Assembly: GCA_041752435.1 (NCBI GenBank)
Contig: JBGSWM010000031.1
Span: 1 to 24,301 of the forward strand
Reading direction: 5' to 3'
Origin: Minisyncoccia bacterium
GTDB lineage: Bacteria; Patescibacteriota; Minisyncoccia; Phycocordibacterales; UBA918
Length of the DNA: 24,301 nucleotides
The notes below the pieces were generated by a model, which saw only the letters and a list, made by a program, of their open reading frames with translations, made no database searches and was not told the origin of the DNA. The translations under genes were made by a program, and so were the position numbers. Shown here one piece after another: positions 3 through 14,199 of this stretch (within the stretch, counting starts at the first letter, position 1; each line of letters opens with the position of its first letter).

Positions 3-1445
3 GCCTACGGTAAGCTCACAATTGGTGATGGTTCGACAACTACGAATGCTGGTATCCAGATTGGCTATGGTGGCATCTGTGTCGATAATGACGGCTCTTG
101 TGTCGCGTCCACTACTGGTCGTATCACCGCGGTTGAGTACACCACGGCCAACTCCGACTTAGCGGAAAACTACTTCTCGAGCGAAGATCTCGAGGCTGGT
201 GACGTGGTGTACCTCAAGGGTGGGCTATCGGTTGGCCGAGCTACCGGCGAGACAGCCGGTCGAGTACTTGGGGTGGTCTCCACCGCGCCCGGTATGACCC
301 TTGGTAGTAACGACTCATCGCTAGTTAGTGGCGAGACGGCTTTCCCGATTGGTCTTTCAGGTCGTGTGCCAGTGAAGTTGTCTGACGAGAATGGTCCAGT
401 TAAGGCTGGTGATGAACTGATGATGTCCTCTGTACCAGGTGTCGCGATGAAAGCTTCTTCTACAGGGGTGGTGATTGGTCTGGCGCTGGAAGACTTTGAT
501 AGTGCGCGAGCGTACTCAGACACATACATCAATCAGTTTGGCGAGAACATTATCGTGCCGGAGTACACCCCAATCAATCGAATTAGTGACCCACGGATTG
601 ATGATGGCTGTTACTACGGTGGTGGCAACGAGTCGGGCGAAGAAGTTTGTGTGCCGCTGGCTGCTACTACGACCAGTGCGCAGTATGATGAGGCCGATCA
701 GTTGGCAGCCGAGGAGGCTAAAGCAAAGGCTCTGCGTGCGCTGGTGCGGGTTGATAGTGAGGCGGTAGAGATTGGTAGTGGAGAGACAGTTCAGGTGGGG
801 CAGATTGTGATGTTCGTTGACCTCAGCTTCCGTTACCTAGATGAGACTGGTTTGGCTATGGTGTCGGCCCTCCTCGCAACCACGACTGAAGCAGAAGGGG
901 AAGAGACGGGGACTATCTGGCAGCGCTTGGTTAGTCTGGCCGAAAACTTTGTCGACGGGGTTCTTTCCGTCTTTACTTTGAAGGCTGATAAGGTGGAGAC
1001 GAACGAATTGTGTGTCGACGGGGTCTGCGTCTCGGGCGATGAGCTACGCGAAATTCTCCTTAATCTCAATGCTCCGCCAGAGCAACCAATCAGTTCTTCT
1101 GGGGGAACGGTTGAAGATGAGGAGGTTGATGAGGAAGTAGTAGAAGATGAAACTAATCCACCGGTACCAGAACCAGAGCCAGAAGTAGAAATTCCACCAG
1201 ATACGGATGAAGAAGAGGAGGTGGCAACTTCAACTGAAGCAGGGACTGAACCAGGAGCTGACGAGACACCAACTGGAGATGGGTCCGAAGAGGAAAGTCC
1301 AGTTAGTGAAGATGAGGAAGGGGTTGGAGAAAGTTTAGTCGAGGAAGATCCGGTAGTCGAACCTGAACTAGAACCGGCCCCAGAGCCTGAACCAGAAGTG
1401 ATCGAGGAAACGGTCGAAGAGATTACTAATATAGGAAATCCATAA
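3..1445 (+). CDS. 3' part (5'-truncated by the window) of a large fibre/tail-spike-like surface protein. It has an intramolecular-chaperone autocleavage domain (Peptidase_G2/S74-like) and an acidic Pro/Glu-rich tail.
   Basis: Frame is open from base 3 (AYGKLTIGDGS...), so the ORF-track start at 204 is internal. Motifs: NS-DLAENY (150-173), GVVSTAPG, GRVPVKLSDENGPVKAGDELMMSSVPGVAMKA, GLALEDF, GQIVMFVDL, then ELCVDGVCVSGDELREIL and an E/P-rich low-complexity tail. Stop TAA at 1443-1445. Confidence 0.75.
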   Translation, partial: AYGKLTIGDGSTTTNAGIQIGYGGICVDNDGSCVASTTGRITAVEYTTANSDLAENYFSSEDLEAGDVVYLKGGLSVGRATGETAGRVLGVVSTAPGMTLGSNDSSLVSGETAFPIGLSGRVPVKLSDENGPVKAGDELMMSSVPGVAMKASSTGVVIGLALEDFDSARAYSDTYINQFGENIIVPEYTPINRISDPRIDDGCYYGGGNESGEEVCVPLAATTTSAQYDEADQLAAEEAKAKALRALVRVDSEAVEIGSGETVQVGQIVMFVDLSFRYLDETGLAMVSALLATTTEAEGEETGTIWQRLVSLAENFVDGVLSVFTLKADKVETNELCVDGVCVSGDELREILLNLNAPPEQPISSSGGTVEDEEVDEEVVEDETNPPVPEPEPEVEIPPDTDEEEEVATSTEAGTEPGADETPTGDGSEEESPVSEDEEGVGESLVEEDPVVEPELEPAPEPEPEVIEETVEEITNIGNP

Positions 1446-2394: not shown

Positions 2395-5300
2395 ATGACA
2401 AAAAATAGTTATCAAACAAAATATAATGAGCGAAAGACAGGGAGTGAGTCCCGCTTCTTCGGGGTGTTGCTACCGTCTTTTTTGTTAGCTATCCTTTGTT
2501 TGGCTATTTTCCTACTCCCAGCACTGGCTCCTCAAGCTGAGGCGGCGATTGGGACGGGTGGGGCGCTTTGTACGGCGCAAAGTAAGTCGGCCGGCACTTC
2601 GCTTTCTTGTTCACCAACTCTTGAGAGTTTTAATGTAGGTAATATCGCCGTGATGATTTTTGCCGGTAATAACACGGCGACAGTCGATGGTAACGATGGG
2701 TTACTTTCCTCAGTCACTGACGACAAAGGAAATACTTGGACTGTACAGCGGTGCTTCACCAATAGTCGCGGCTCGGCTGGTGCAGGTGCGACCACTTGTA
2801 TCGCGACCGCTAAGATAACTACTGAACTCGCTACTTCTGCCGGCAACAACATTACTGCTAACTTTTCTTCGATTACTGCCAAGTCAATGGTGGTTAAAGA
2901 GTTCACGGTCGATTCCGGTAATACCCTGGAGATAGCCGGAACCCCGCAGGACGACGCTCGACTGACTGATCCAATAAATTTAACTATCACAGGCTTAACT
3001 AGTGGGGAGTATCTATTTTTGCGTAGTGTCGCTATAGAGAGGACTGCCCCTGGCGCTTGGACATCAACCGCAGGCTTTTCATCAACTACTTGTAACGGAA
3101 CTTCAAATGGACTCAATGCTTCAAATATGGAGGTGTGTGGTGAGTATGTCATTGAGTCCAGTTCGACTGGTACCTCGAGTAACCCGACCGCTTCGGGAAA
3201 TGATAACGCCTCCATTTTCGTGGCCTTGTCTGAGGTAATCATTCCAGACTACTCTCTTGGCGGTTCTATCTATAGCGATGCGGGAATAAATAAGGCGACT
3301 GGTACGAAGACGGTTAAGATAGTGATTGCTACGACTACTACCAGCGTCTTTTCGACCACCTCTGATGCTCTCGGGAACTGGTCTCTACCCATCACTGACT
3401 TTTCTGCCATTACTACCGGTACCAAGGTCTTAGTCTACGTTGATGGTGAAACAAATTTTAAAGCCAGTACTTTTACTAAGCTGGCTGATAATACGACGTC
3501 AGTGACAAATCTGGATCTCTATCACAACCGAGCAATCTTGCGCGATGAAATCGATACAGCTACCACCACTACTTTGGGTGAGTTGACCTTTTATGATGGT
3601 GCTGACGATAGTGATATTCGCTATATTTTCTCTGGCACTAGCTCAATGAATGTGCTCTCAGGAACAGAGTTGTATATTAAAGCGGGGACCACCTTCTCAC
3701 CGGAAGGTACGGTGACGGTCGAGGGTAATGGTTTAGCCAACTCGACCGATGGTTCACTTTATGTCGGGGGTGTATATACTCCTAGTGGCACCACCACCTT
3801 GGCGGGGAATTTGGTTTTTGCTAGTAGCAGTACCTACTATACTAACGTCGAAGGATTTGTCTTTACGGCCACGACTACGGGCAAGTATGTCTATGCCCCA
3901 AGTAGTACTTCGCTCGGGCCGATAGTCTTTAATGGTGTTGGTGGCGGTTGGCTTATGGCGACAGCGGCTGAGGTATCTGATTTCACCATTACCAACGGAA
4001 CCGTCGTCGGTCCGATTGGGACACTGACTATCAGTGGTGACTTTATTAACAATGGTACTTATATCGAGCAGGGTGGTGAACTGGTTTTTAGTGGTGCGGA
4101 TTTAACTCTTTCCGGTGAGGGTAACTTTGGTAACCTGACCTTAGCAGCCGCAGCTGCAGCTGATTTGGATCTAATCACCCACGCTGATTTCAACGTTTCA
4201 GTGGTGGCCGTAGATCAAGTTAATGGCATTGTCTATTTTGGTACCGGTATTGAAGGTTCACCGACGGAGTTCGCCTCAATTTATCGCTGTGATTTAACCA
4301 CTGCTTGTGACGCCTCGGGCGACTTCAGTGAAGTCTTCACTGCCTCGGCCGATAGAGCTATCTCGGCTTTAGTTATTGATGAGATTAACGCTCGTCTGTA
4401 TCTCGGTACCGGCAGTGGTGAGGGAGCAATTTATGGTTGCAACTTGTCTTCTGATTGTAACGCCTCCGGCGACTTTGTCTTGGCTTATGATACCACTGAG
4501 TCAGTCATTAGTTCGTTTTTGATTGATGATGTTAATCAGGTTTTATATGTCGGGACCGAGAGTGGTGGCATCATCTACCGCTGTCTTCTCTCGACCGGTT
4601 GTGACGCCTCGGGCGACTTCACGACCGCCTACGACACGACCGAAACTAGTATCGAGTCAATGGTGATTGATGTGGAAAGGGGAATATTGTTTGTCGGCAC
4701 TAGTCCAAGCGGCATCATCTACCGCTGTCTCCTCAGTACCGGCTGCGACGCCTCGGGTGACTTCACGACCGCCTACGACACAGCTGAGAACGCGATTGAG
4801 TCGATGGTGATTGATACTAGTAAAGATAGACTCTATGCTGGTGGATCAGGTGATTTGTTTGTTTGCTCGCTATCTTCTCTTTGCGACGTATCTGGTGATT
4901 TTGCTAACCCAGATCTTAGTGGTGCTGATCTTAATTATCAATCTATGGTGGTGGCTCCAGCGGGAGTATTGTTTATTGGGGAGGTTGATTTGGTGCGCTA
5001 TGTCGATGTGGCTACTTCGTCACTAACAGTCCTTGACGATATTAGCGTGCAAAACCTGACCATTGGTACTTATGCCTCGGCTACTCTGCCGGCGTCGATG
5101 ACGGTTGGCGGTAGCTACACCAATAACGGCACAGTGACGGCGGCTGGCACTACTACTTTCTCTGGATTTACCCAAGTAGCTACAGGGACTCTCACTGGTA
5201 CCTCAGCTTTAGGGGGTGTGACTTTTTCTGGGTTAGCTAACTTTCAATCAGGTAACGCTACTTCCACCTTCACGGAGACAGGGGTAATTTGGGATACTGG

Positions 5301-8300
5301 CAGTAGTAGTGACGAATTAATTGGTAACGTAGTAGATGAGACCACTCTTTATACTGTCGGCTTTTGTACCGGGTGTGGTAGTGCGGGCGGGGAAGCTATT
5401 TTGGTTGCCGCTTACGATAAAAATAGTGGTGCACTCCTGTGGTCGACCACGACTGACCCGAGTACAGGTGATGATCGGGGGACTGGTATCGCGGTGGATA
5501 ATACCTACGCCTACGTGTGGGGTGAGTGGTTTGACGGAGCGGACGACGCCTTGTATCTAATGGCGCTTAATAAAAGTACGGGGGACTTTGTCTGGAGTAC
5601 GAGCCAAGATCCTTCTTCGGGAACAGATATAGGTGCCTCGATTGTGGTCGACGGCGATTATCTGTACGCCAATGGCGCCTGTGCTACTTGTGGAGCGGGA
5701 TCGTCAGCTACTTTTTACACTGCTCAGTTTACTAAGGACAACGGTACCCTTCTTTGGTCTACCACCACAGACCCGAGTTCATCTTTGGATATTGCTACTG
5801 GTATCTATACCGATGAGAGATATGTCTACACAATGGGCTACTGCATCGGTTGCGGGGATAAGGCTTTGGCGGCGGTGTACACCATAGCACTCGTCAAGGA
5901 GACGGGGGCTTTGGTGTGGCAAAAATACGCCGACCCAACTTTTTTAAATGATTTAGGTTATCGTATAACTGGAGACGAAGACACGGTGTATGTGACGGCC
6001 TACTGTTTTGGTTGCAACAGCTCAAATAAATTTGCGTACTACACAATAGCCTATGATAAGGTTAACGGTACGGAACGCTGGGCCACCACCACTGACCCGG
6101 GTGAAGACGACCGGGCGCGGGGTATAGCGGTTGATGATGAGTATGTCTACCTGTCTGGTTATTGTACCAACTGTGTAGTCGTTAGTTCGACGGCTATCTA
6201 TGTATTAGTTCTTGATAAAGCGACCGGGGCTTTTGTACAGAGTGCCAGTACCAGTGCAGCTATTGGTGAAAGTCGCGGTGAGGCGATGGCTTATGACGGA
6301 CACTACTTATATGTCTCTGGCGTCTGTGTCGACTGTGGGCAATATGAAGGCGAAGCTGCTTATACGGTAAAGTTTGACAAGACAAATCTCGCGCTCGTGA
6401 CGGGGGATAGCAGTCTGACTTTTGGCGCCAACGCCTCAACCAGTGCTCTTACTATTGCTGCTATTTCGACTAATATTGTCTCAGCGTCAGATCATTTATC
6501 GGTAGCCGGGGATTTCTATAATGAAAATATTTTCAGTGCCCCTAGTGGTAATTTCATAGTTGGAGGTAATTTTACAAATTATGGCAATTTCTCGGCTAAC
6601 GATGGTGTGGTGAAGATAGACTCGGCTTATGAGCAAATTATTGAGATAGATAGTACGGCCTCGTCGACTTTTTATGATATTTCTCTAAGTGGGCCTGGTC
6701 AGAAGACTTTTGCGAGTATTTTTACCACTGCTTATGACTCTTCAGAGACTTCGATTAGCTCACTAGCAATCGACGCTGCAAATGGAGTTCTCTACGCTGG
6801 TGGGTCTGGGAGCAGTATCATCTACCGCTGCCTTCTCACTACAGGATGTGATGCGAGTGAGGATTTTACGACCGCGTATGATACTAGCGAATCATCCGTT
6901 GATTCCCTTGTGATAGATTCTACAAACGGCGTCCTCTATGCGGGTACAGGACGCAGTTTTGGAGATGGTGGTATCATCTACCGCTGCCTTCTCTCGACTG
7001 GCTGCGACGCAAGTGGAGATTTTGCGGTGGCGTACAATACCACTCAAGCATATATTTATTCACTGGCTATCGACGCCACAAATGGTGTCCTTTATGCGGG
7101 AACTTACTCTGGCGGCATCATCTACCGCTGTCTCCTCAGTACCGGCTGCGACGCCTCGGGTGATTTCACGACGGCGTATGATACTTCCGAAACATATATT
7201 CATTCACTGGCTATCGACGCCACAAACAACGTCCTCTACGCCGGTAGTGGCAACAGCGGCATCATCTACCGCTGTCTCCTCAGTACCGGCTGCGACGCCT
7301 CGGGTGATTTCACGACGGCGTATGATACTTCAGAGGCATCAATCTATTCGCTTATAGTAGACTCTGTAAATGGTACTCTTTATGTTGGGGGCGGCAGCGG
7401 CATCATCTATCGCTGCCTACTTTCTACCGAATGTGATGGAAGCAGAGCTCTAACTGAAGTATATGATAATGCGTTGGGTATAAACATCAATAACTTCACC
7501 ATTGATTCTTTAGGTAGTACTTTGTATGCGGGTGTATCAGGGGGCAACACTTACCGTTTCCAAAACGGTTTTGACTTTGGTACCAGCGCTACTACAAGTG
7601 ACCTTGTTATTGCCGAAGGCCATGCCATGGTGGCACCTATAGAAATAGAGATTACGGGGGATTATATAAATGAAGGATTCTTTAATGCTGGTGGCGGTAC
7701 TACTACCTTCTCTGGTACTGGAGAGCAAACCGCCACTGGCACCATGACCGGTACCAGCGCGTTTGCAAATCTGGCGATTACTAACACGGCCGCGACGACG
7801 ACTTTTGGTAGCGCTCTCACTGTCAGTGACACCTTGACCGCATTCCCCGGGACAAAGATCGCTCTACAGTCTGGGGCCACCACCACTGTAGCCAATCTCA
7901 ATTTAGCAGGCTCCAGTACCTCACCCGTCACCTTTGGGGCAACAGAGACCACTTCACCAGCCAACTTTGTTTTGACTGGATCTTCGGCCGTGACTTATAC
8001 CACCATTCAAAATAACCATGCCTGTGGCTCAACTGGTGGGGTGATTGATGTTTTACTGGGTAATAATACTGATGGCGGAGATACTGAATGTTGGATTATT
8101 GTTCCTAGTAATCCGCAAATTGCTATGACGGAAAGTCAAACCTTCTTCATTGGTCAGACGGCAACACCTCTTAATGTAATAACTGTTTATGATGCAATCA
8201 ATCCTGTCATTACGGCGGTAGATGATATTAGGATTACTATTGCTACCAGCACCACTAACTTTCTCTGGGCCGATACTGGTTTTACTTTCCTAAACATCAG

Positions 8301-9624
8301 TGGCACAGCAGCCGGTAAGGTCGATTTGGTACCAACTTATACGGATGGATTTGCGACGGTAGTAATTGATGTCACTAGTGATTTTGAAAGCGAAGACACC
8401 TTAATAATTAGCGGTCTAACGGCCACCAGTTTTTCGTCCGTATCAACTACAACATCCGCACTGGCTCTACATCTAGATGGTGACAGTGTCGGTTCACCAA
8501 TCGCTACTTCAACTGAGACTTTTCGGATCACTGGTTTACTGTCTGTGGTTGACCATGACGCTGGGCAAACCGATAATCAATTTAGTTGGCAAAATCAGGA
8601 CGACGTAACACTCTTCTCGTTTAGCCTAGAGGCTACGGGTGAGACGGCGACTGTGACGGATATGGTGGTAACTCTCAGTGGTCTACAAAAGATCGACGGG
8701 ACAAATATCTCTGACTTTAAGCTCTATGAAGACATAAACAGTGATGGCGAACTCGATGGTGGAGACGCCTTAATCGAGAGTGGTGGCATCCTAAATATTA
8801 ATGGACAGTACGGAGCTATCACTTTCAGTACCGATGTCTTGGCCACTACTACGACTAACTACATTGTAACTGGTGATACCACGGCGATCACAAACGGAGC
8901 CGCTGTCTACTTCTCGCTACCGGCTTTGGGAGTGTCGGCGACTGGTTCAATCTCAGGCTCAGACATCACGGTGTTGAGTACCGTGACTAACATTCAGCAT
9001 CTACGTAATAACAGTAGTGGCGGTGGTTCAAGCCAAATCGGTGGCGCGACGCCACCGGGAGCTACGACCGAGACGGGCGGGGGAAGCGGTGGTGGTGATG
9101 AGGTGGGGCAGGAAACAGATGGTGACAATATTGCTCCGGATGCCGACTTCTACGCTCCGACCGGTACAAGTACCCCAAATCAGTGGACTAATCCAGAGAA
9201 TGTCTATGCTTCTGATGGTTTGGCGGCCACGGCGGCGACGAATAATTATGAGCAGACCTTTATCAACTTTGGCTTCAATATCCCGGGCAGCAACGTCATT
9301 GATGGTATTAGTGTCAAGCTCGATGCGTCTGGTTCAACGGCGGCAGGGACAATCGATGTCGCTCTGTCTTGGAACGGGGGAAGTTCATTTACTTCGGCTA
9401 AAGCCACCCCAACGCTAAGTGATAGCGATGTGGTGTACACGGTTGGTGGTGGAGCGGATACTTGGGGCCGCAGCTGGTCGGCGGGTGAGTTTGCTCCGAG
9501 CGAGTTTATCCTTCGGGTGACAGCCAATACGAGCAGCAACACGCTACTTCTAGACGCCCTTGAGGTACGTGTCTTCCACCGCGCCGCTGGTGGAGGTGGC
9601 GGGGGTGGGGGAGGAATAATCTAG
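2395..9624 (+). CDS. Giant (2409 aa) exported surface protein/putative adhesin. Beta-solenoid-like scaffold with three inserted beta-propellers, a Ca-binding-like DxNxDG motif and a Gly-rich C-terminus.
   Basis: Uninterrupted ORF. Basic n-region, hydrophobic stretch and AEA|A signal-peptidase-like site near aa 50. T/S/G-rich, with recurring GDF.N.G.F...GT..FSG units and internal repeats. DINSDGELDGGD motif near the C-terminus; ends AAGGGGGGGGGII*. Confidence 0.85.
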   Translation: MTKNSYQTKYNERKTGSESRFFGVLLPSFLLAILCLAIFLLPALAPQAEAAIGTGGALCTAQSKSAGTSLSCSPTLESFNVGNIAVMIFAGNNTATVDGNDGLLSSVTDDKGNTWTVQRCFTNSRGSAGAGATTCIATAKITTELATSAGNNITANFSSITAKSMVVKEFTVDSGNTLEIAGTPQDDARLTDPINLTITGLTSGEYLFLRSVAIERTAPGAWTSTAGFSSTTCNGTSNGLNASNMEVCGEYVIESSSTGTSSNPTASGNDNASIFVALSEVIIPDYSLGGSIYSDAGINKATGTKTVKIVIATTTTSVFSTTSDALGNWSLPITDFSAITTGTKVLVYVDGETNFKASTFTKLADNTTSVTNLDLYHNRAILRDEIDTATTTTLGELTFYDGADDSDIRYIFSGTSSMNVLSGTELYIKAGTTFSPEGTVTVEGNGLANSTDGSLYVGGVYTPSGTTTLAGNLVFASSSTYYTNVEGFVFTATTTGKYVYAPSSTSLGPIVFNGVGGGWLMATAAEVSDFTITNGTVVGPIGTLTISGDFINNGTYIEQGGELVFSGADLTLSGEGNFGNLTLAAAAAADLDLITHADFNVSVVAVDQVNGIVYFGTGIEGSPTEFASIYRCDLTTACDASGDFSEVFTASADRAISALVIDEINARLYLGTGSGEGAIYGCNLSSDCNASGDFVLAYDTTESVISSFLIDDVNQVLYVGTESGGIIYRCLLSTGCDASGDFTTAYDTTETSIESMVIDVERGILFVGTSPSGIIYRCLLSTGCDASGDFTTAYDTAENAIESMVIDTSKDRLYAGGSGDLFVCSLSSLCDVSGDFANPDLSGADLNYQSMVVAPAGVLFIGEVDLVRYVDVATSSLTVLDDISVQNLTIGTYASATLPASMTVGGSYTNNGTVTAAGTTTFSGFTQVATGTLTGTSALGGVTFSGLANFQSGNATSTFTETGVIWDTGSSSDELIGNVVDETTLYTVGFCTGCGSAGGEAILVAAYDKNSGALLWSTTTDPSTGDDRGTGIAVDNTYAYVWGEWFDGADDALYLMALNKSTGDFVWSTSQDPSSGTDIGASIVVDGDYLYANGACATCGAGSSATFYTAQFTKDNGTLLWSTTTDPSSSLDIATGIYTDERYVYTMGYCIGCGDKALAAVYTIALVKETGALVWQKYADPTFLNDLGYRITGDEDTVYVTAYCFGCNSSNKFAYYTIAYDKVNGTERWATTTDPGEDDRARGIAVDDEYVYLSGYCTNCVVVSSTAIYVLVLDKATGAFVQSASTSAAIGESRGEAMAYDGHYLYVSGVCVDCGQYEGEAAYTVKFDKTNLALVTGDSSLTFGANASTSALTIAAISTNIVSASDHLSVAGDFYNENIFSAPSGNFIVGGNFTNYGNFSANDGVVKIDSAYEQIIEIDSTASSTFYDISLSGPGQKTFASIFTTAYDSSETSISSLAIDAANGVLYAGGSGSSIIYRCLLTTGCDASEDFTTAYDTSESSVDSLVIDSTNGVLYAGTGRSFGDGGIIYRCLLSTGCDASGDFAVAYNTTQAYIYSLAIDATNGVLYAGTYSGGIIYRCLLSTGCDASGDFTTAYDTSETYIHSLAIDATNNVLYAGSGNSGIIYRCLLSTGCDASGDFTTAYDTSEASIYSLIVDSVNGTLYVGGGSGIIYRCLLSTECDGSRALTEVYDNALGININNFTIDSLGSTLYAGVSGGNTYRFQNGFDFGTSATTSDLVIAEGHAMVAPIEIEITGDYINEGFFNAGGGTTTFSGTGEQTATGTMTGTSAFANLAITNTAATTTFGSALTVSDTLTAFPGTKIALQSGATTTVANLNLAGSSTSPVTFGATETTSPANFVLTGSSAVTYTTIQNNHACGSTGGVIDVLLGNNTDGGDTECWIIVPSNPQIAMTESQTFFIGQTATPLNVITVYDAINPVITAVDDIRITIATSTTNFLWADTGFTFLNISGTAAGKVDLVPTYTDGFATVVIDVTSDFESEDTLIISGLTATSFSSVSTTTSALALHLDGDSVGSPIATSTETFRITGLLSVVDHDAGQTDNQFSWQNQDDVTLFSFSLEATGETATVTDMVVTLSGLQKIDGTNISDFKLYEDINSDGELDGGDALIESGGILNINGQYGAITFSTDVLATTTTNYIVTGDTTAITNGAAVYFSLPALGVSATGSISGSDITVLSTVTNIQHLRNNSSGGGSSQIGGATPPGATTETGGGSGGGDEVGQETDGDNIAPDADFYAPTGTSTPNQWTNPENVYASDGLAATAATNNYEQTFINFGFNIPGSNVIDGISVKLDASGSTAAGTIDVALSWNGGSSFTSAKATPTLSDSDVVYTVGGGADTWGRSWSAGEFAPSEFILRVTANTSSNTLLLDALEVRVFHRAAGGGGGGGGGII
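4189..5007 (+). repeat. Intragenic ~48-aa repeat cluster 1 (about six propeller-like blades, five with C-x5-C)
   Basis: Consensus I.S..ID....LY.G....IYRC.L...CDASGDF..AYDT.E; near-identical DNA copies begin at about 4567 and 4711. Confidence 0.85.
5311..6381 (+). repeat. Intragenic PQQ-like propeller repeat (seven blades, six with CxxC)
   Basis: Repeating D..G.A..D..Y.Y..G.CxxC......Y.....K..G..W.T.TDP; CTGC, CATC, CIGC, CFGC, CTNC, CVDC at equivalent positions. Confidence 0.8.
6721..7560 (+). repeat. Intragenic ~48-aa repeat cluster 2 (about six blades, five with C-x5-C)
   Basis: Same consensus as cluster 1. A 76-bp perfect direct repeat at 7112-7187 and 7256-7331 gives a 144-bp period. 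Confidence 0.88.
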
Positions 9625-9736: not shown

Positions 9737-9738
9737 GG

Positions 9739-9815
9739 TCCAGCGATTTGCCCTAGGACGGGGCAAATCGGGACGTAACTTCGCAATAATCGCTACGCTC
9801 ATTTGCTCATTTATC
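9739..9815. repeat. Structured intergenic repeat, copy 1 (77 bp)
   Basis: 67/77 identical to 9884-9960. Stem cgatttgccc/gggcaaatcg; 32-nt core ttcgcaataatcgctacgctcatttgctcatt at 9780-9811. Confidence 0.9.
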
Positions 9816-9883
9816 CCTTGGGGGTCGAATCCAGCTAAGCGCGCATCATCACATCGGTGTATATATGTAGTTTGACCGCGTGT

Positions 9884-9960
9884 TCCAGCGATTTGGTCTA
9901 GGAATGACCAAATCGGGAACTAAATTCGCAATAATCGCTACGCTCATTTGCTCATTCATC
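9884..9960. repeat. Structured intergenic repeat, copy 2 (77 bp)
   Basis: Stem cgatttggtc/gaccaaatcg; identical 32-nt core at 9925-9956; 145 bp offset from copy 1. Confidence 0.9.
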
Positions 9961-10056: not shown

Positions 10057-10758
10057 ATGAACACACAAAATATTATTAAAGCCTCAAGTCAAGCCTTCAT
10101 AGCGGCTGTCTTGGCGGTGCTGTTGGCGGCTGGCAGTTTCTTCTTGATTGAACCACAGGTCGGACAGGCGGTTACGAGCGGTCCGTTCACCATCACGACT
10201 ACTATCACTGACGAAATTTCTTTCTTGGTGGGAGCAGCTAATGTGACTGCCACGGGTAGTATCAACGGTATTACTGGTGGTCAGGCCAATGGATCTACTA
10301 CCGTATCAGTCCGGACCAACAGTAATACTGGCTACACTATGTCCATTGCTTTCTATAACAATGGAACTGACAACGCTATGCTCGGTAACAATTCGCTCAG
10401 TCAATCTATCCGTGACTACCCAGCCTCTAGTACTGAGCCAACCTATCTCTTTGACACCTCAAGTACATCAGCGGTCTTTGCTTACACTGTTAGTGCTCTA
10501 GACGATACAGATATCGCTCGCGCTTTCTTGGATAATGGTATCGGTGCCTGTAATGAACTAGCCGGGGCTTATACAGCAGATCGTTGTTGGATGGAACCGC
10601 AGGTGGCGGGCTATGAGATTATCGATCGAACTTCGTCAGCTCCAACCGGTGCTACAAGTACCATCAGTTTCCGTATCCTCGTTCCAAATAACCCAGTACC
10701 AGGACTAGTAGCTGACGTTTATACGGCTACTGCAACCTTGACGGCGGTTAACCAATAG
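10057..10758 (+). CDS. Secreted beta-sandwich subunit, WxL-/pilin-like (putative major subunit)
   Basis: Signal peptide ending GQA|V; motif STTVSVRTNSNTGYTMSI; one Cys pair (C-x11-CW); C-terminal strand YTATATLTA; no anchor. Paralogous to 11849..12619. Confidence 0.6.
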   Translation: MNTQNIIKASSQAFIAAVLAVLLAAGSFFLIEPQVGQAVTSGPFTITTTITDEISFLVGAANVTATGSINGITGGQANGSTTVSVRTNSNTGYTMSIAFYNNGTDNAMLGNNSLSQSIRDYPASSTEPTYLFDTSSTSAVFAYTVSALDDTDIARAFLDNGIGACNELAGAYTADRCWMEPQVAGYEIIDRTSSAPTGATSTISFRILVPNNPVPGLVADVYTATATLTAVNQ

Positions 10759-10777
10759 AGGTATTGTAGTCAAAACT

Positions 10778-11839
10778 ATGACTACAAAGTGTGTTCAAAC
10801 AGCTCTGTTGAAATTGCTTATAACCTTAGCCAGCTTTATTTTGCTGGCTAATGTTGTTTTAGCTCAGGGAAATACCCCTGAAGCGTCAGCAGAAATCGCG
10901 ACGACGAGTGTAGAAGCTAGTGTACCGGTGGTGGTTGAGGCCGCGCCTTGGTTTCAGGTTGAGCAACTAATTGGTGACAACCAGGCGGTGGGCGACTTCG
11001 TGGTCGGTCCGGGACGAGCGGAGATTGAGGTCTTGCCGGGACAGACAGTGACCTATGAAATATCAATATCAAATCGGATTAGTGATGGTCGGACTTTTGA
11101 GTTGTCGGTTGAGGACGTGGCTGGTTCGGCTGATGGTTCACAGGCCGTAGTCTTGCTGGGCGAAAGTCGTGGGCCGTACACGGTTAAGGACTACATCAGT
11201 TTTCCGAGTAATACCTTTAAGTTGGACTTGGGGGAGAGAGCGCGTATTCCGGTAACTATTTCTATTCCGCCTGACGCTGAGCCGGGTGGCTTCTATGGCA
11301 GTGTGCTCGTCTCTACCCTTAAGGAGGAGGAAGAAATTGCGGCCAACGCTATTTCTCGGTCACCAATTATTGCTCGAATCGGTACTTTGTTTTTCATTAC
11401 GGTACCTGGTGAGGTACAGAGGAGCGGTCAGGTCAAAGACCTCTCGCTTCTAAACGATCAGTGGTGGTATGAGTCGGGTCCGATTAGTCTTGCTGTTACC
11501 TATGAAAACACCGGATCAGTCCACCTAAATCCTTATGGTGAATTGCGTATCAAAAACTTTTTTAAGGAAGAGGTAGGTTTTCTGGAACTAGAACCATGGT
11601 TTGCTTTACCGAAGTCACTACGTTCGCGGGAAGTGCGGTGGGATAGAGAGTTTTTGTTTGGTCGCTATGTGGCCACGGTTTACATCAACCGAGGCTATGA
11701 TGATGTGGTTGATGAAAAGTCGATAGTTTTTTGGGTATTGCCGTGGAAGATTGTGGGCGGAATCTTCCTGATAGTTTTCTTATTTGTTTTCTCGATTAGA
11801 GCCTTCTTCAAGAATTTTGAGTTTAAACGTAAAACGTAG
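10778..11839 (+). CDS. Membrane-anchored DUF916/DUF3324-like (WxL-interacting / chaperone-like) protein
   Basis: Signal peptide; IPVTISIPPDAEPGGFYGSVL and YENTGSVHLNPYGELRIKN motifs typical of DUF916/DUF3324-type proteins; VLPW followed by a C-terminal TM helix and basic tail (FKRKT). Confidence 0.65.
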   Translation: MTTKCVQTALLKLLITLASFILLANVVLAQGNTPEASAEIATTSVEASVPVVVEAAPWFQVEQLIGDNQAVGDFVVGPGRAEIEVLPGQTVTYEISISNRISDGRTFELSVEDVAGSADGSQAVVLLGESRGPYTVKDYISFPSNTFKLDLGERARIPVTISIPPDAEPGGFYGSVLVSTLKEEEEIAANAISRSPIIARIGTLFFITVPGEVQRSGQVKDLSLLNDQWWYESGPISLAVTYENTGSVHLNPYGELRIKNFFKEEVGFLELEPWFALPKSLRSREVRWDREFLFGRYVATVYINRGYDDVVDEKSIVFWVLPWKIVGGIFLIVFLFVFSIRAFFKNFEFKRKT

Positions 11840-11848
11840 TTACAGTTT

Positions 11849-12619
11849 ATGGTCCCTTGTTCTTTCATCCGCCTGACTCTTCAATCCCTGGTCACGACCG
11901 GACTGCTCTTGCTGATGATAGTTGTCAGTGAAGCTCAGGTAAGGAGTAGTTCAAACTACCGACTGGAGAGTGATAGCGTCAACTTCGGTGGTGGACTAGC
12001 GACTTCTACTAACTACAGCCTGGAGAGTACGGCTGGTGAGATAGCGACTGGTCCTTCTGACAGTGCTACTTATAGTTTGCGAGCTGGCTACCAACAAATG
12101 CAAGAAGTTTTCATTAGTCTGACCGCCCCGGCTGATGTAATAATGACACCAAACATTGGCGGTATCACGGGCGGTACGGCTAATGGATCAACTAGCGTGC
12201 TAGTGTTGACCGATAGCCCCAGTGGCTACGCCTTAACCTTGGTAGCTGAAAGTGCTCCGGCGATGCAGCGATTTGATGGGGAGAGTATTGCCAATTACGC
12301 ACCACAAGCTGCCCCTAATACTGATCCAACTTTTTTGACGACGGCGAGTGACGCGCATTTTGGCTTTAATCCTGAGGGTGATGATGTAGTTTTACGTTAT
12401 CTAAACAATACTACTTTGTGTGGTGTCGGAAGCAATAGCACCGCCTTGATGTGTTGGGATGGAGTCTCGACTACGCCGCAGACGATTGCTAGCGGCGCTG
12501 CCAACCAGCCGTCGGGTGCGACGACGACTTTATATTTCCGAGTCGGGGTAGGAGGTTCGGTAGTGGTACCGGCTGGTACCTATGTAGCAACCACGACCCT
12601 AACCGCCCTGCCACTATGA
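11849..12619 (+). CDS. Secreted WxL-/pilin-like subunit with an N-terminal S-x-N-Y repeat extension (putative minor subunit)
   Basis: Signal peptide (SEA|Q). Shares I.GITGG.ANGST.V.V.T...GY, C-x10-CW, P.GAT.T..FR..V and Y.AT.TLTA with 10057..10758. Ends in TGA overlapping the next ATG. Confidence 0.6.
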   Translation: MVPCSFIRLTLQSLVTTGLLLLMIVVSEAQVRSSSNYRLESDSVNFGGGLATSTNYSLESTAGEIATGPSDSATYSLRAGYQQMQEVFISLTAPADVIMTPNIGGITGGTANGSTSVLVLTDSPSGYALTLVAESAPAMQRFDGESIANYAPQAAPNTDPTFLTTASDAHFGFNPEGDDVVLRYLNNTTLCGVGSNSTALMCWDGVSTTPQTIASGAANQPSGATTTLYFRVGVGGSVVVPAGTYVATTTLTALPL

Positions 12620-14199
12620 GTTCGGGCCTAAACAGAGTAATTATTTGTTTGGCGCTACTTTTTTTACCGAGTCTGACCCTGGCGGCAACGGATGATTTTA
12701 CAATTAGAGCTTTTGTGGGAGATGATGTGACTGCACCGACCGTACCAGTGTTGGAGTCCGTGGTACCGATCGCCTCATCACAGATCGATATTGCCTGGAG
12801 CACTTCAACCGACGATTGGATTTTTGGTGGTTATGTTTTGTGGCGAGACAATTTGCCGATTGCTACTACTACACTGACGAGCTACAGTGATACTGGGCTG
12901 ACGCCAGAGACTTTGTATGCGTATACGGTCTATGCATTTGATGAAGCGGGTAATATTTCGGCCACCTCAAGTACTTTGTCTACGACAACTCTTGGTGTGC
13001 CGGTGGTGGCGACCAGTACACCACCAGTCGATAGTCCCCCCTCTGGGACCAGGGTGGTGACGCTCAAAAGTTTTTTGCTGGAGGAAGATAAGACTTTTGC
13101 CTGGCTGACTTGGGAGACAAATATGGCTTCCCGCTTTTCACTGCGCTGGGGTCGAACCGATGCTTATACCGGAGGCTATATAGAGAACGAAACTTACTTG
13201 ATGGGACATCGGACAAAAATTTCTGACCTGGAACCAGGTACGGTGTATCAGTATGAGTTAATCGGCTACACGCCAACAGGTATTGCTGTTAGCTTAAAAA
13301 AAGGCGATTTTACCACTCTCAGTCAAGATATAAATCGAGTGGTGCCAAACGTCGAACGACTAACGGCAGCGGTGGAAGGGGATGATGTGGTTTTGAATTA
13401 TATTATCCCGCCAACTGAAGTCGGGGCAAGGGTACGGATTGTGCGTAGTCATCTTGGTTACCCGACCGACTTATCTGACGGGGCGATTATCTATGAGGGG
13501 GCAGCCAGTACTTGGCGCGACCCGGGGGCGCTAGTTAATTATGAAAAACAGTACTACACAGTTTTTTTGCTAGGCAGTGACGGTAGTGTATCCTCTGGCG
13601 CGGTGGTGGTGGCGTTAAAGTTGGGGGTGGTGGGTATCCCGGGTGAGCCAGGCAAGTCAGTCGCTACTTCAACTGAACCTGGTTTAAACCAGCCCCCAGA
13701 AATAATTCTCAGCCGACTGACGGAAAATAACATCATCATCAAGCAGGGTGGAAAACAATTTTCATTTATTGATGAAAGTATAAGCTTATCTTACTCTCAA
13801 CCTTTTACTATTTTAATTCCCAAGACGGCTTTACCGGAACATCTAAAGTCAATTATTGTTACCTTGCTTGATCCGACCGATCAGCGTCGTAGCTACACTT
13901 TTTTACTCCGAATAAACAAATCCGGTACTGCCTATGAAGCCACTATTTCCGCCCTTGATGTAGTCGGTGTGTCGCGACTGCAGATAGAAGTCTATGACTT
14001 CAAACAGTTGGTGATTGGTCGCTATCGTAAACAAATAGATTTTGTTCGGGAAGAAAAGGTCGAAGCTGAAGTGGTCTTTCCTGATTTACTAATTGAACCA
14101 TTAAAAGTAACGGGGGTGATTACTCTTGGACTAGTCGGTCTCGGCTTTATTGGTTGGTTTCTGTTTATTTGGCGTCGTCGGGCTGAGGATAAGAACTAG
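12616..14199 (+). CDS. Membrane-anchored fibronectin type III repeat protein
   Basis: Signal peptide; Fn3 signatures (PTVPVLESVVPIASSQIDIAWSTSTD..GY..LTPETLYAYTVYAFDEAGN; ISDLEPGTVYQYEL); C-terminal TM helix plus RRRAEDKN; ATGA overlap with the upstream gene. Confidence 0.8.
   Translation: MSSGLNRVIICLALLFLPSLTLAATDDFTIRAFVGDDVTAPTVPVLESVVPIASSQIDIAWSTSTDDWIFGGYVLWRDNLPIATTTLTSYSDTGLTPETLYAYTVYAFDEAGNISATSSTLSTTTLGVPVVATSTPPVDSPPSGTRVVTLKSFLLEEDKTFAWLTWETNMASRFSLRWGRTDAYTGGYIENETYLMGHRTKISDLEPGTVYQYELIGYTPTGIAVSLKKGDFTTLSQDINRVVPNVERLTAAVEGDDVVLNYIIPPTEVGARVRIVRSHLGYPTDLSDGAIIYEGAASTWRDPGALVNYEKQYYTVFLLGSDGSVSSGAVVVALKLGVVGIPGEPGKSVATSTEPGLNQPPEIILSRLTENNIIIKQGGKQFSFIDESISLSYSQPFTILIPKTALPEHLKSIIVTLLDPTDQRRSYTFLLRINKSGTAYEATISALDVVGVSRLQIEVYDFKQLVIGRYRKQIDFVREEKVEAEVVFPDLLIEPLKVTGVITLGLVGLGFIGWFLFIWRRRAEDKN

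Follow-up and report, generated by a model that had tools for sequence, protein, structure and literature searches.

The 24,301-nucleotide stretch of DNA analysed here (hereafter the window; contig JBGSWM010000031.1 of a Minisyncoccia bacterium) contains a gene for a giant secreted protein, P0001, which we regard as a strong candidate for a variable host-gripping adhesin. The gene belongs to a genome of 778 kb with 47% GC that is 86% complete. The protein has a stalk made of a repeat unit of about 76 amino acids (aa), into which three propeller domains are inserted. In order to avoid circularity, the two halves of this unit, X (44 aa) and Y (21 aa), were recognized with profiles derived from homologues, and P0001, the query, was excluded from them. 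The unit offers two insertion sites. Site A follows the G-T-V-Y strand; site B follows the N-L-T-I-x-G strand, at the junction from Y to the next X. The gene and its parts are as follows.

2395 to 9624, + strand: giant secreted protein gene (P0001), 2,409 aa, an open reading frame
2395 to 2544, + strand: N-terminal hydrophobic signal sequence; the sole hydrophobic peak of the protein is at aa 18-52
3652 to 4149, + strand: start of the beta-helix stalk, with divergent unit 0 (site-B junction empty, about aa 507-521) and unit 1 (aa 521-585)
4150 to 5028, + strand: insert 1 (aa 586-878), a class R propeller in site B, blades of 48 aa with two Cys
5029 to 5232, + strand: scaffold unit 2 (aa 879-946), site A empty; X matches with 36 bits and Y with 19 bits
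5233 to 6414, + strand: insert 2 (aa 947-1340), a PQQ/BamB-like class Q propeller in site B, CxxC blades each about 54 aa long
6415 to 6705, + strand: scaffold unit 3 (aa 1341-1437), half-unit duplicated
6706 to 7569, + strand: insert 3 (aa 1438-1725), a class R beta-propeller in site B, six-bladed according to an AlphaFold2 model and structural matches
7570 to 8109, + strand: scaffold unit 4, followed by the cap module that ends the beta-helix (aa 1726-1905); a homologous stretch models as a beta-helix
8110 to 9621, + strand: C-terminal region, recognized by its sequence conservation, with a poly-Gly and then an Ile tail at its end

The profiles found the order X-[insert]-X-Y-[insert]-X-(weak Y)-[insert]-X-Y in the query, with full X matches scoring 23-39 bits compared to about 6 bits for the best locally shuffled match. 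The duplicated half-unit of unit 3 corresponds to aa 1343-1406 and has low predicted confidence at about aa 1360-1375. With position-constrained scoring, all three inserts were placed at site B, and site A is unused. A first-pass annotation of this DNA, made from its letters, had proposed that three propellers interrupt the same position of a repeating scaffold. This proposal holds: the eight motifs it quoted all lie in one frame (nt 4120-7824; aa 576-583, 881-890, 937-946, 1341-1354, 1425-1439, 1726-1739, 1788-1797 and 1802-1810), and the three inserts are all situated between a Y and the next X. Two of its further points had to be modified. The fourth unit indeed lacks an insert, but it runs into the terminal cap module, and a cleaner empty junction exists further upstream, at about aa 507-521, beyond the range covered by that annotation; likewise, the proposed insertion hotspot is present, but there are two per unit rather than one.

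Family searches recognized little of the protein. The only clear match in a Pfam and NCBIfam scan was Pfam PQQ_2 (E 3.5e-13, aa 950-1340), which corresponds to insert 2; neither database has a model for the scaffold or for the class R propellers, and neither gave a match in the C-terminal region or one naming the whole protein. Inserts 1 and 3 share 140 of 275 residues, and insert 1 is probably six-bladed and insert 2 probably seven-bladed. Judged from sequence, the signal sequence is likely cleaved after A-x-A at about aa 50 and the C-terminal region probably consists of three beta-rich domains. A hydrophobicity scan found no membrane anchor at the C-terminus. Most complete orthologues have the Gly run and Ile tail (window 9592-9621, + strand) in common, and some instead extend into an amphipathic helix; the conserved tail is possibly a docking or sorting signal.

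The gene as assembled appears to be genuine. Logan contigs of one hot-spring metagenome run, probably the source sample, match it in 30 of 30 bins, and contigs of the same run span three of the junctions (nt 6415, 6706 and 7570) with zero differences. No alternative joints were seen among the Logan contigs, which have a depth of about 4 and lose rare variants. BLAST comparison of the sequence with itself returned the full self match only. A chimeric assembly is unlikely, given the single open frame, the three bridged junctions and the recurrence of these junctions in independent genomes.

Structure prediction covered aa 1340-1905 of the query and residues 1512-1850 of the homologue P0058, in which the scaffold is uninterrupted. 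The query fragment was modelled by AlphaFold2 with a mean predicted local distance difference test (pLDDT) of 88 and a predicted template modelling score (pTM) of 0.71, and shows short repeating strands on both sides of insert 3. Insert 3 itself reached pLDDT values of mostly 87-98. Its top structural matches are six-bladed propellers, including lactonase-type enzymes, at 8-18% identity (top Z 27.7, root-mean-square deviation (rmsd) 2.5, 255 residues aligned). Since these matches cover model residues 99-388, i.e. aa 1438-1727, the borders of insert 3 agree with the junction given in the first-pass annotation. Structural searches with this model returned propellers and do not constitute a test of the stalk.

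The stalk is seen in the homologue, which models as a single domain with a pLDDT of 96 and a pTM of 0.91. This model matches right-handed beta-helices, namely Vag8 (Z 15.7, rmsd 4.8, 307 aligned), EtpA (Z 14.6, rmsd 5.8, 311 aligned), AlgG (Z 13.5) and VacA (Z 13.4), with Atlas matches up to a template modelling score of 0.71; Foldseek gave no match for the scaffold model at E <= 0.001. In the P0058 model, site A (residues 129-133) and site B (residues 152-156) are each a five-residue loop between strands. The uninterrupted homologue is thus one beta-helix that passes through the junction loop, and in it the stretches on either side of the loop form a continuous solenoid, as the first-pass annotation had supposed. 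In the query, the rungs would be stacked across the filled loop in the same manner. A complex prediction with the flanks before and after the insert gave a score of 0.01, which counts neither for nor against this.

The two sites are general features of the family. An orthologous C-terminal region is present in 51 of 119 genomes of the genus, nearly always as a single copy, and in the remainder of the class the scaffold has a scattered occurrence (7 of 200). Gaps at the two sites were analysed in 273 de-duplicated proteins, 101 of which have at least two X units, and their lengths are bimodal. At site A, 205 gaps are 12 aa or shorter, 62 measure 221-560 aa and 5 are intermediate; at site B, 168 are empty, 57 filled and 2 intermediate. 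The X half is almost never interrupted midway. The consensus of the Y half is kept beside filled sites, with median scores of 24.5 (site A) and 22.1 (site B) compared to 24.1 at empty sites, and the scaffold resumes in register after every filled slot. Four proteins have a unit with cargo in both of its slots, so that a lone, conserved 21-aa Y remains between two large inserts (lone-Y cases were counted as five, one of which leads into a cap module). As 21 residues are too short for independent folding, the conservation of Y in this position is hardly explicable unless it is stacked in a continuous helix.

The labelled cargo, 220-460 aa in size, comprises five propeller classes and LamG lectin domains, each class with a narrow range of lengths. 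Classes were assigned by motif rules, which left about 80 gaps unlabelled; many of these belong to the same classes but escaped the rules, and about 36 are apparent cap-and-restart segments. The counts at sites A and B, respectively, are 0 and 14 for R, 0 and 8 for Q, 0 and 4 for LamG, 15 and 0 for LVIVD, 19 and 0 for the lactonase-like class, and 23 and 19 for the YGNG-type. Thus, five of the six classes are confined to one site, the YGNG-type being the exception. Among the rarer cargo are Vgb-like propellers at site A and DUF2341-containing inserts at site B.

The order and identity of these cassettes vary among homologues. The query carries R-Q-R, L056 carries Q-R-empty-R, L033 has LVIVD followed by R, and class Q is found at site B in P0151, L056 and P0111. 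In total, 19 cassette strings were counted in 32 orthologues, a number inflated by incomplete contigs. In a quick tree of the C-terminal region, the neighbours of the query bear YGNG-type or LVIVD cargo, and the proteins P0008 (R,R) and P0111 (Q,Q), sisters with a Shimodaira-Hasegawa-like approximate likelihood ratio test (SH-aLRT) support of 100, differ in cargo. Because kin share labels and many genes are incomplete, we read this tree as showing variation and not its rate. The flanks stay collinear while the propellers vary, as expected for the cassette design that had been proposed: homologous junctions are empty, otherwise filled or reordered. The cassettes are therefore exchangeable in the sense that they are swapped, absent or reordered, but most classes are bound to one site, which points away from free plug-in.

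Some related genes extend this picture. The largest series is seen in L063 (458-19156 of G107; 6,233 aa), with ten labelled cassettes among empty units and about 13 in all; these are of three kinds (YGNG-type, Vgb-like propellers and LamG), and some units have both slots filled. Among the closest orthologues, L036 (G035:C1:331400-340000) combines LVIVD, R and YGNG-type cassettes in one gene, which is split into many frames, probably by assembly errors. Contigs C112 and C113 of G000 contain two further giant frames of at least 3,483 and 3,867 aa, the one on C112 with a related scaffold and DUF2341-type inserts. Class Q and R propellers also occur off this scaffold, in the LamG-rich P0152, in many other proteins and, weakly, in one Omnitrophota genome, so that the cargo pool is more widely shared.

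Downstream of the giant gene lie four genes which we regard as a putative Pam/WxL-like pilus cassette (10057-14199).

10057 to 10758, + strand: small secreted WxL/pilin-like protein; its Atlas features score 0.92 against a cluster that is 37% WxL
10778 to 11839, + strand: putative WxLIP / PamC-D-like chaperone with C-terminal transmembrane helix; Pfam WxLIP_PGBD at E 0.003, weak and below the cut-off
11849 to 12619, + strand: PamT-like small pilin-like protein; NCBIfam NF058579 at E 2e-11 and 43.6 bits, where the cut-off is 240
12616 to 14199, + strand: fibronectin-III protein with C-terminal transmembrane helix and PamR-like architecture; Pfam fn3 at E 3.6e-6

The products of the genes at 10057 and 11849 are paralogues (profile comparison, E 1e-72). 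These four genes follow the giant gene in most orthologous loci with enough sequence, and a homologue of 204-1445 usually precedes it where upstream DNA is present. No match to PamA or PamB was found among the neighbouring genes. The frame at 3-1445 (+ strand) is the C-terminal part of this conserved upstream gene, whose homologue in L036 follows Asn/Thr/Gly-rich repeats; it may correspond to the gene described as 'tail fibre-like' in the vicinity of pam operons. Between it and the giant gene lies a sulfotransferase gene (1451-2296, + strand) that is absent from the homologous loci compared. The intergenic gap after the giant gene contains two copies of an element of about 75 bp with inverted arms (9738-9812 and 9881-9958), which is similar to repetitive extragenic palindromes (REP) or miniature inverted-repeat transposable elements (MITE), has similar copies on six other contigs of the genome and on other contigs of the hot-spring runs, and gave no tRNA or Rfam match.

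These results are probably best explained by a rod whose loops carry domains in two slots per unit, with cargo spread by recombination and a role in multivalent binding. According to this model, P0001 would be a secreted surface fibre with a stalk formed by a right-handed parallel beta-helix of units of about 76 aa. Each of the short surface loops, A or B, could hold a whole globular domain with closely spaced ends: the chain would exit the helix, fold the domain and re-enter in register, so that the domains would jut sideways from a single rod, in the query three times from site B. The fold of the homologous scaffold, the fold and borders of insert 3, the bimodality of the two sites, the diversity of the cargo and the synteny are computed results; the stacking across filled loops, the recombination route, the ligand binding and the mode of display are what we infer from them. 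The site fidelity of five of the six classes suggests that each class entered its loop once or a few times, i.e. through a few ancestral insertions, about one per class and site, and then spread by recombination. Through recombination between scaffold repeats, blocks of unit plus cargo may have undergone duplication, loss and exchange, resulting in a hypervariable locus with conserved ends. The loop downstream of the cassette is longer in 4 of 6 measurable cases for class Q, compared to 0 of 11 for class R and 5 of 117 for empty sites, which fits the spread of such blocks. Host or surface binding would be the most likely role, in view of the export signal, the adhesin-type stalk, the lectin-like cargo in the same slot, the variability of the cargo and the gene context; the fibre could bind in a multivalent manner to a host cell or a surface, through the glycans or proteins there, displayed with or beside the Pam/WxL-like pilus.

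Several observations weigh against this explanation. The pTM of the query fragment is compatible with one rod but also with a loosely placed upstream part, and inserts 1 and 2 were classed from sequence. About 25 of the 57 filled gaps at site B are cap-and-restart segments and not cassettes. The evidence that flanks travel together with their cargo is mixed, with a nearest-neighbour agreement of 0.52-0.62 compared to 0.16 after shuffling that is inflated by kinship, and co-travel was unsupported within mixed proteins. Lactonase-type enzymes are among the proteins whose folds match insert 3 best. Finally, the giant protein gave no profile match to the neighbouring pilin-like proteins, so that its link to the pilus is drawn solely from synteny; at the sequence level, neither a Pfam match to a WxL domain nor a profile match to the WxL-like neighbours was found.

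The strongest competing explanation accepts the architecture and regards the variation as old and passive, with inserts arising in place, for instance by amplification of single blades, followed by random loss and no selected exchange. Amplification of blades in place seems to act as well, because, at the DNA level, identity among the blades of insert 3 reaches about 85% and class R has six blades in the query and about seven in most homologues. In addition, several cargo classes cluster by clade, and the orthologues are only 35-60% identical to one another, which leaves the timing unfixed. The same classes, however, are seen again at their site in different clades that have good support, entire classes set sister proteins apart, and the order of R and Q differs between the query and L056. 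We therefore consider passive variation as the sole source of the diversity unlikely, although it deserves to be taken seriously. It is less probable still that the displayed domains are enzymes or structural spacers, such as host-envelope hydrolases or a protective coat, instead of adhesive heads. Enzyme propellers usually have asymmetric active sites, and the blades of the inserts are near-identical repeats. LamG lectin-like domains occupy the same slot, and the likeness of the propeller folds, at the identities given above, is generic. The lactonase-type matches of insert 3 and the match of one cargo class to Pfam SGL/Lactonase speak for enzymes, as do giant proteins of predatory Omnitrophota that were linked to wall degradation (10.1101/2023.11.21.568195). 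That the protein is a string of independent small beta-helix spacers and propellers in series, with no continuous rod, is quite improbable despite the low pTM and the pLDDT of 60-69 just ahead of insert 3, since site-A and site-B proteins would need spacers that are circular permutations of each other, lone Y segments are kept where an insert lies on either side, the flanking rungs retain consensus and register with no sign of capping, and empty units model as a single helix.

The loop-borne design of a two-slot rod has precedents. The passengers of autotransporters, such as Hbp and other serine protease autotransporters of Enterobacteriaceae (SPATEs), IgA1 protease and Vag8, the top fold match of the scaffold, likewise use a right-handed beta-helix stem from whose loops side subdomains emerge that can be removed or replaced with the stem intact (PMC3521207, PMC9289746); the stem of Hbp has five such domains, which are deletable or replaceable (PMC3521207). 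In P0001, by contrast, the stem is repetitive in its very sequence and each unit has two equivalent slots, and the cargo consists of entire propellers or LamG domains that vary naturally among orthologues instead of small loops. Pfam and NCBIfam gave no match to a beta-barrel translocator in the whole protein or in its C-terminal pieces, where the poly-Gly tail forms the end, and no family match to a SPATE serine protease domain in aa 1-590. For two-partner secretion (TPS; the TpsA type of FHA and EtpA), there was no Pfam match to a TPS domain or TpsB transporter in P0001 or nine neighbouring genes.

The other precedent is provided by the split domains in adhesins of the repeats-in-toxin (RTX) type such as Aeromonas AhLap, in which binding domains also bud from a carrier that is completed after their return, and in which the RTX beta-roll solenoid itself buds off a vWFA domain (PMC12077191). 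P0001 resembles a split-domain protein in its bimodal gaps, its preserved register and its model-derived insert borders, with stacking that we infer. Unlike RTX adhesins, its carrier is a beta-helix unit and not an Ig-like domain or a Ca-binding beta-roll, and it has an N-terminal signal sequence, no RTX match or RTX nonapeptides and no type I signal. Compared to AhLap, it has cargo along the whole stalk; propellers are unmentioned in that report (PMC12077191). P0001 therefore works like the side domains of autotransporters and the split domains of RTX adhesins and belongs to neither family.

Comparable proteins and neighbours are known from other ultrasmall bacteria. Vampirococcus lugosii, a symbiont belonging to the candidate phyla radiation (CPR), likewise has very large exported proteins with a proposed role in host recognition and attachment; the available part of the report describes them by size and domain lists, and beta-helix slots and cassette variation are not described there (PMC8080830). 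The genes following P0001 resemble the parts list of the Pam operon of Ca. Mycosynbacter amalyticus and of WxL clusters of Firmicutes, as far as the available parts of these papers go (PMC13278184, PMC10599100): small proteins of pilin/WxL-like type, a chaperone-like protein that has two domains and a C-terminal helix, and a fibronectin-III (FN3) membrane protein. One large host-binding protein is a further component of WxL clusters (PMC10599100). The matches of the neighbours are below curated cut-offs, however, neither a WxL nor a pilin domain is detectable in the giant protein, and the available part of the Pam paper does not describe a giant protein (PMC13278184). No description of the P0001 family was found in the literature searched, with most subscription journals outside its coverage. 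The earlier suggestion of a modular adhesin without a described family can thus be kept for the family, but the design has precedents in autotransporters and RTX adhesins, and the role as adhesin is a likely one.

What is new here is the two-slot rule, the faithfulness of cargo to its site and the genus-wide variation; the general principle was already known from autotransporters and RTX adhesins. For protein engineering, the scaffold is of interest as a natural beta-helix that does without a barrel and takes up large domains at even spacing, at least ten of them in L063. For the biology of Patescibacteria, how hosts are chosen and gripped is largely open, above all outside Saccharibacteria. 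Here, a single syntenic locus with conserved ends contains discrete, expressible cassettes of 220-460 aa that differ between species, which makes host binding testable cassette by cassette. Tentatively, the two-slot rod, situated on or beside a Pam-like pilus and with cassettes that are still recombining, may be the host-recognition display of Paceibacteria, in which case the string of cassettes would set which host a strain attaches to.

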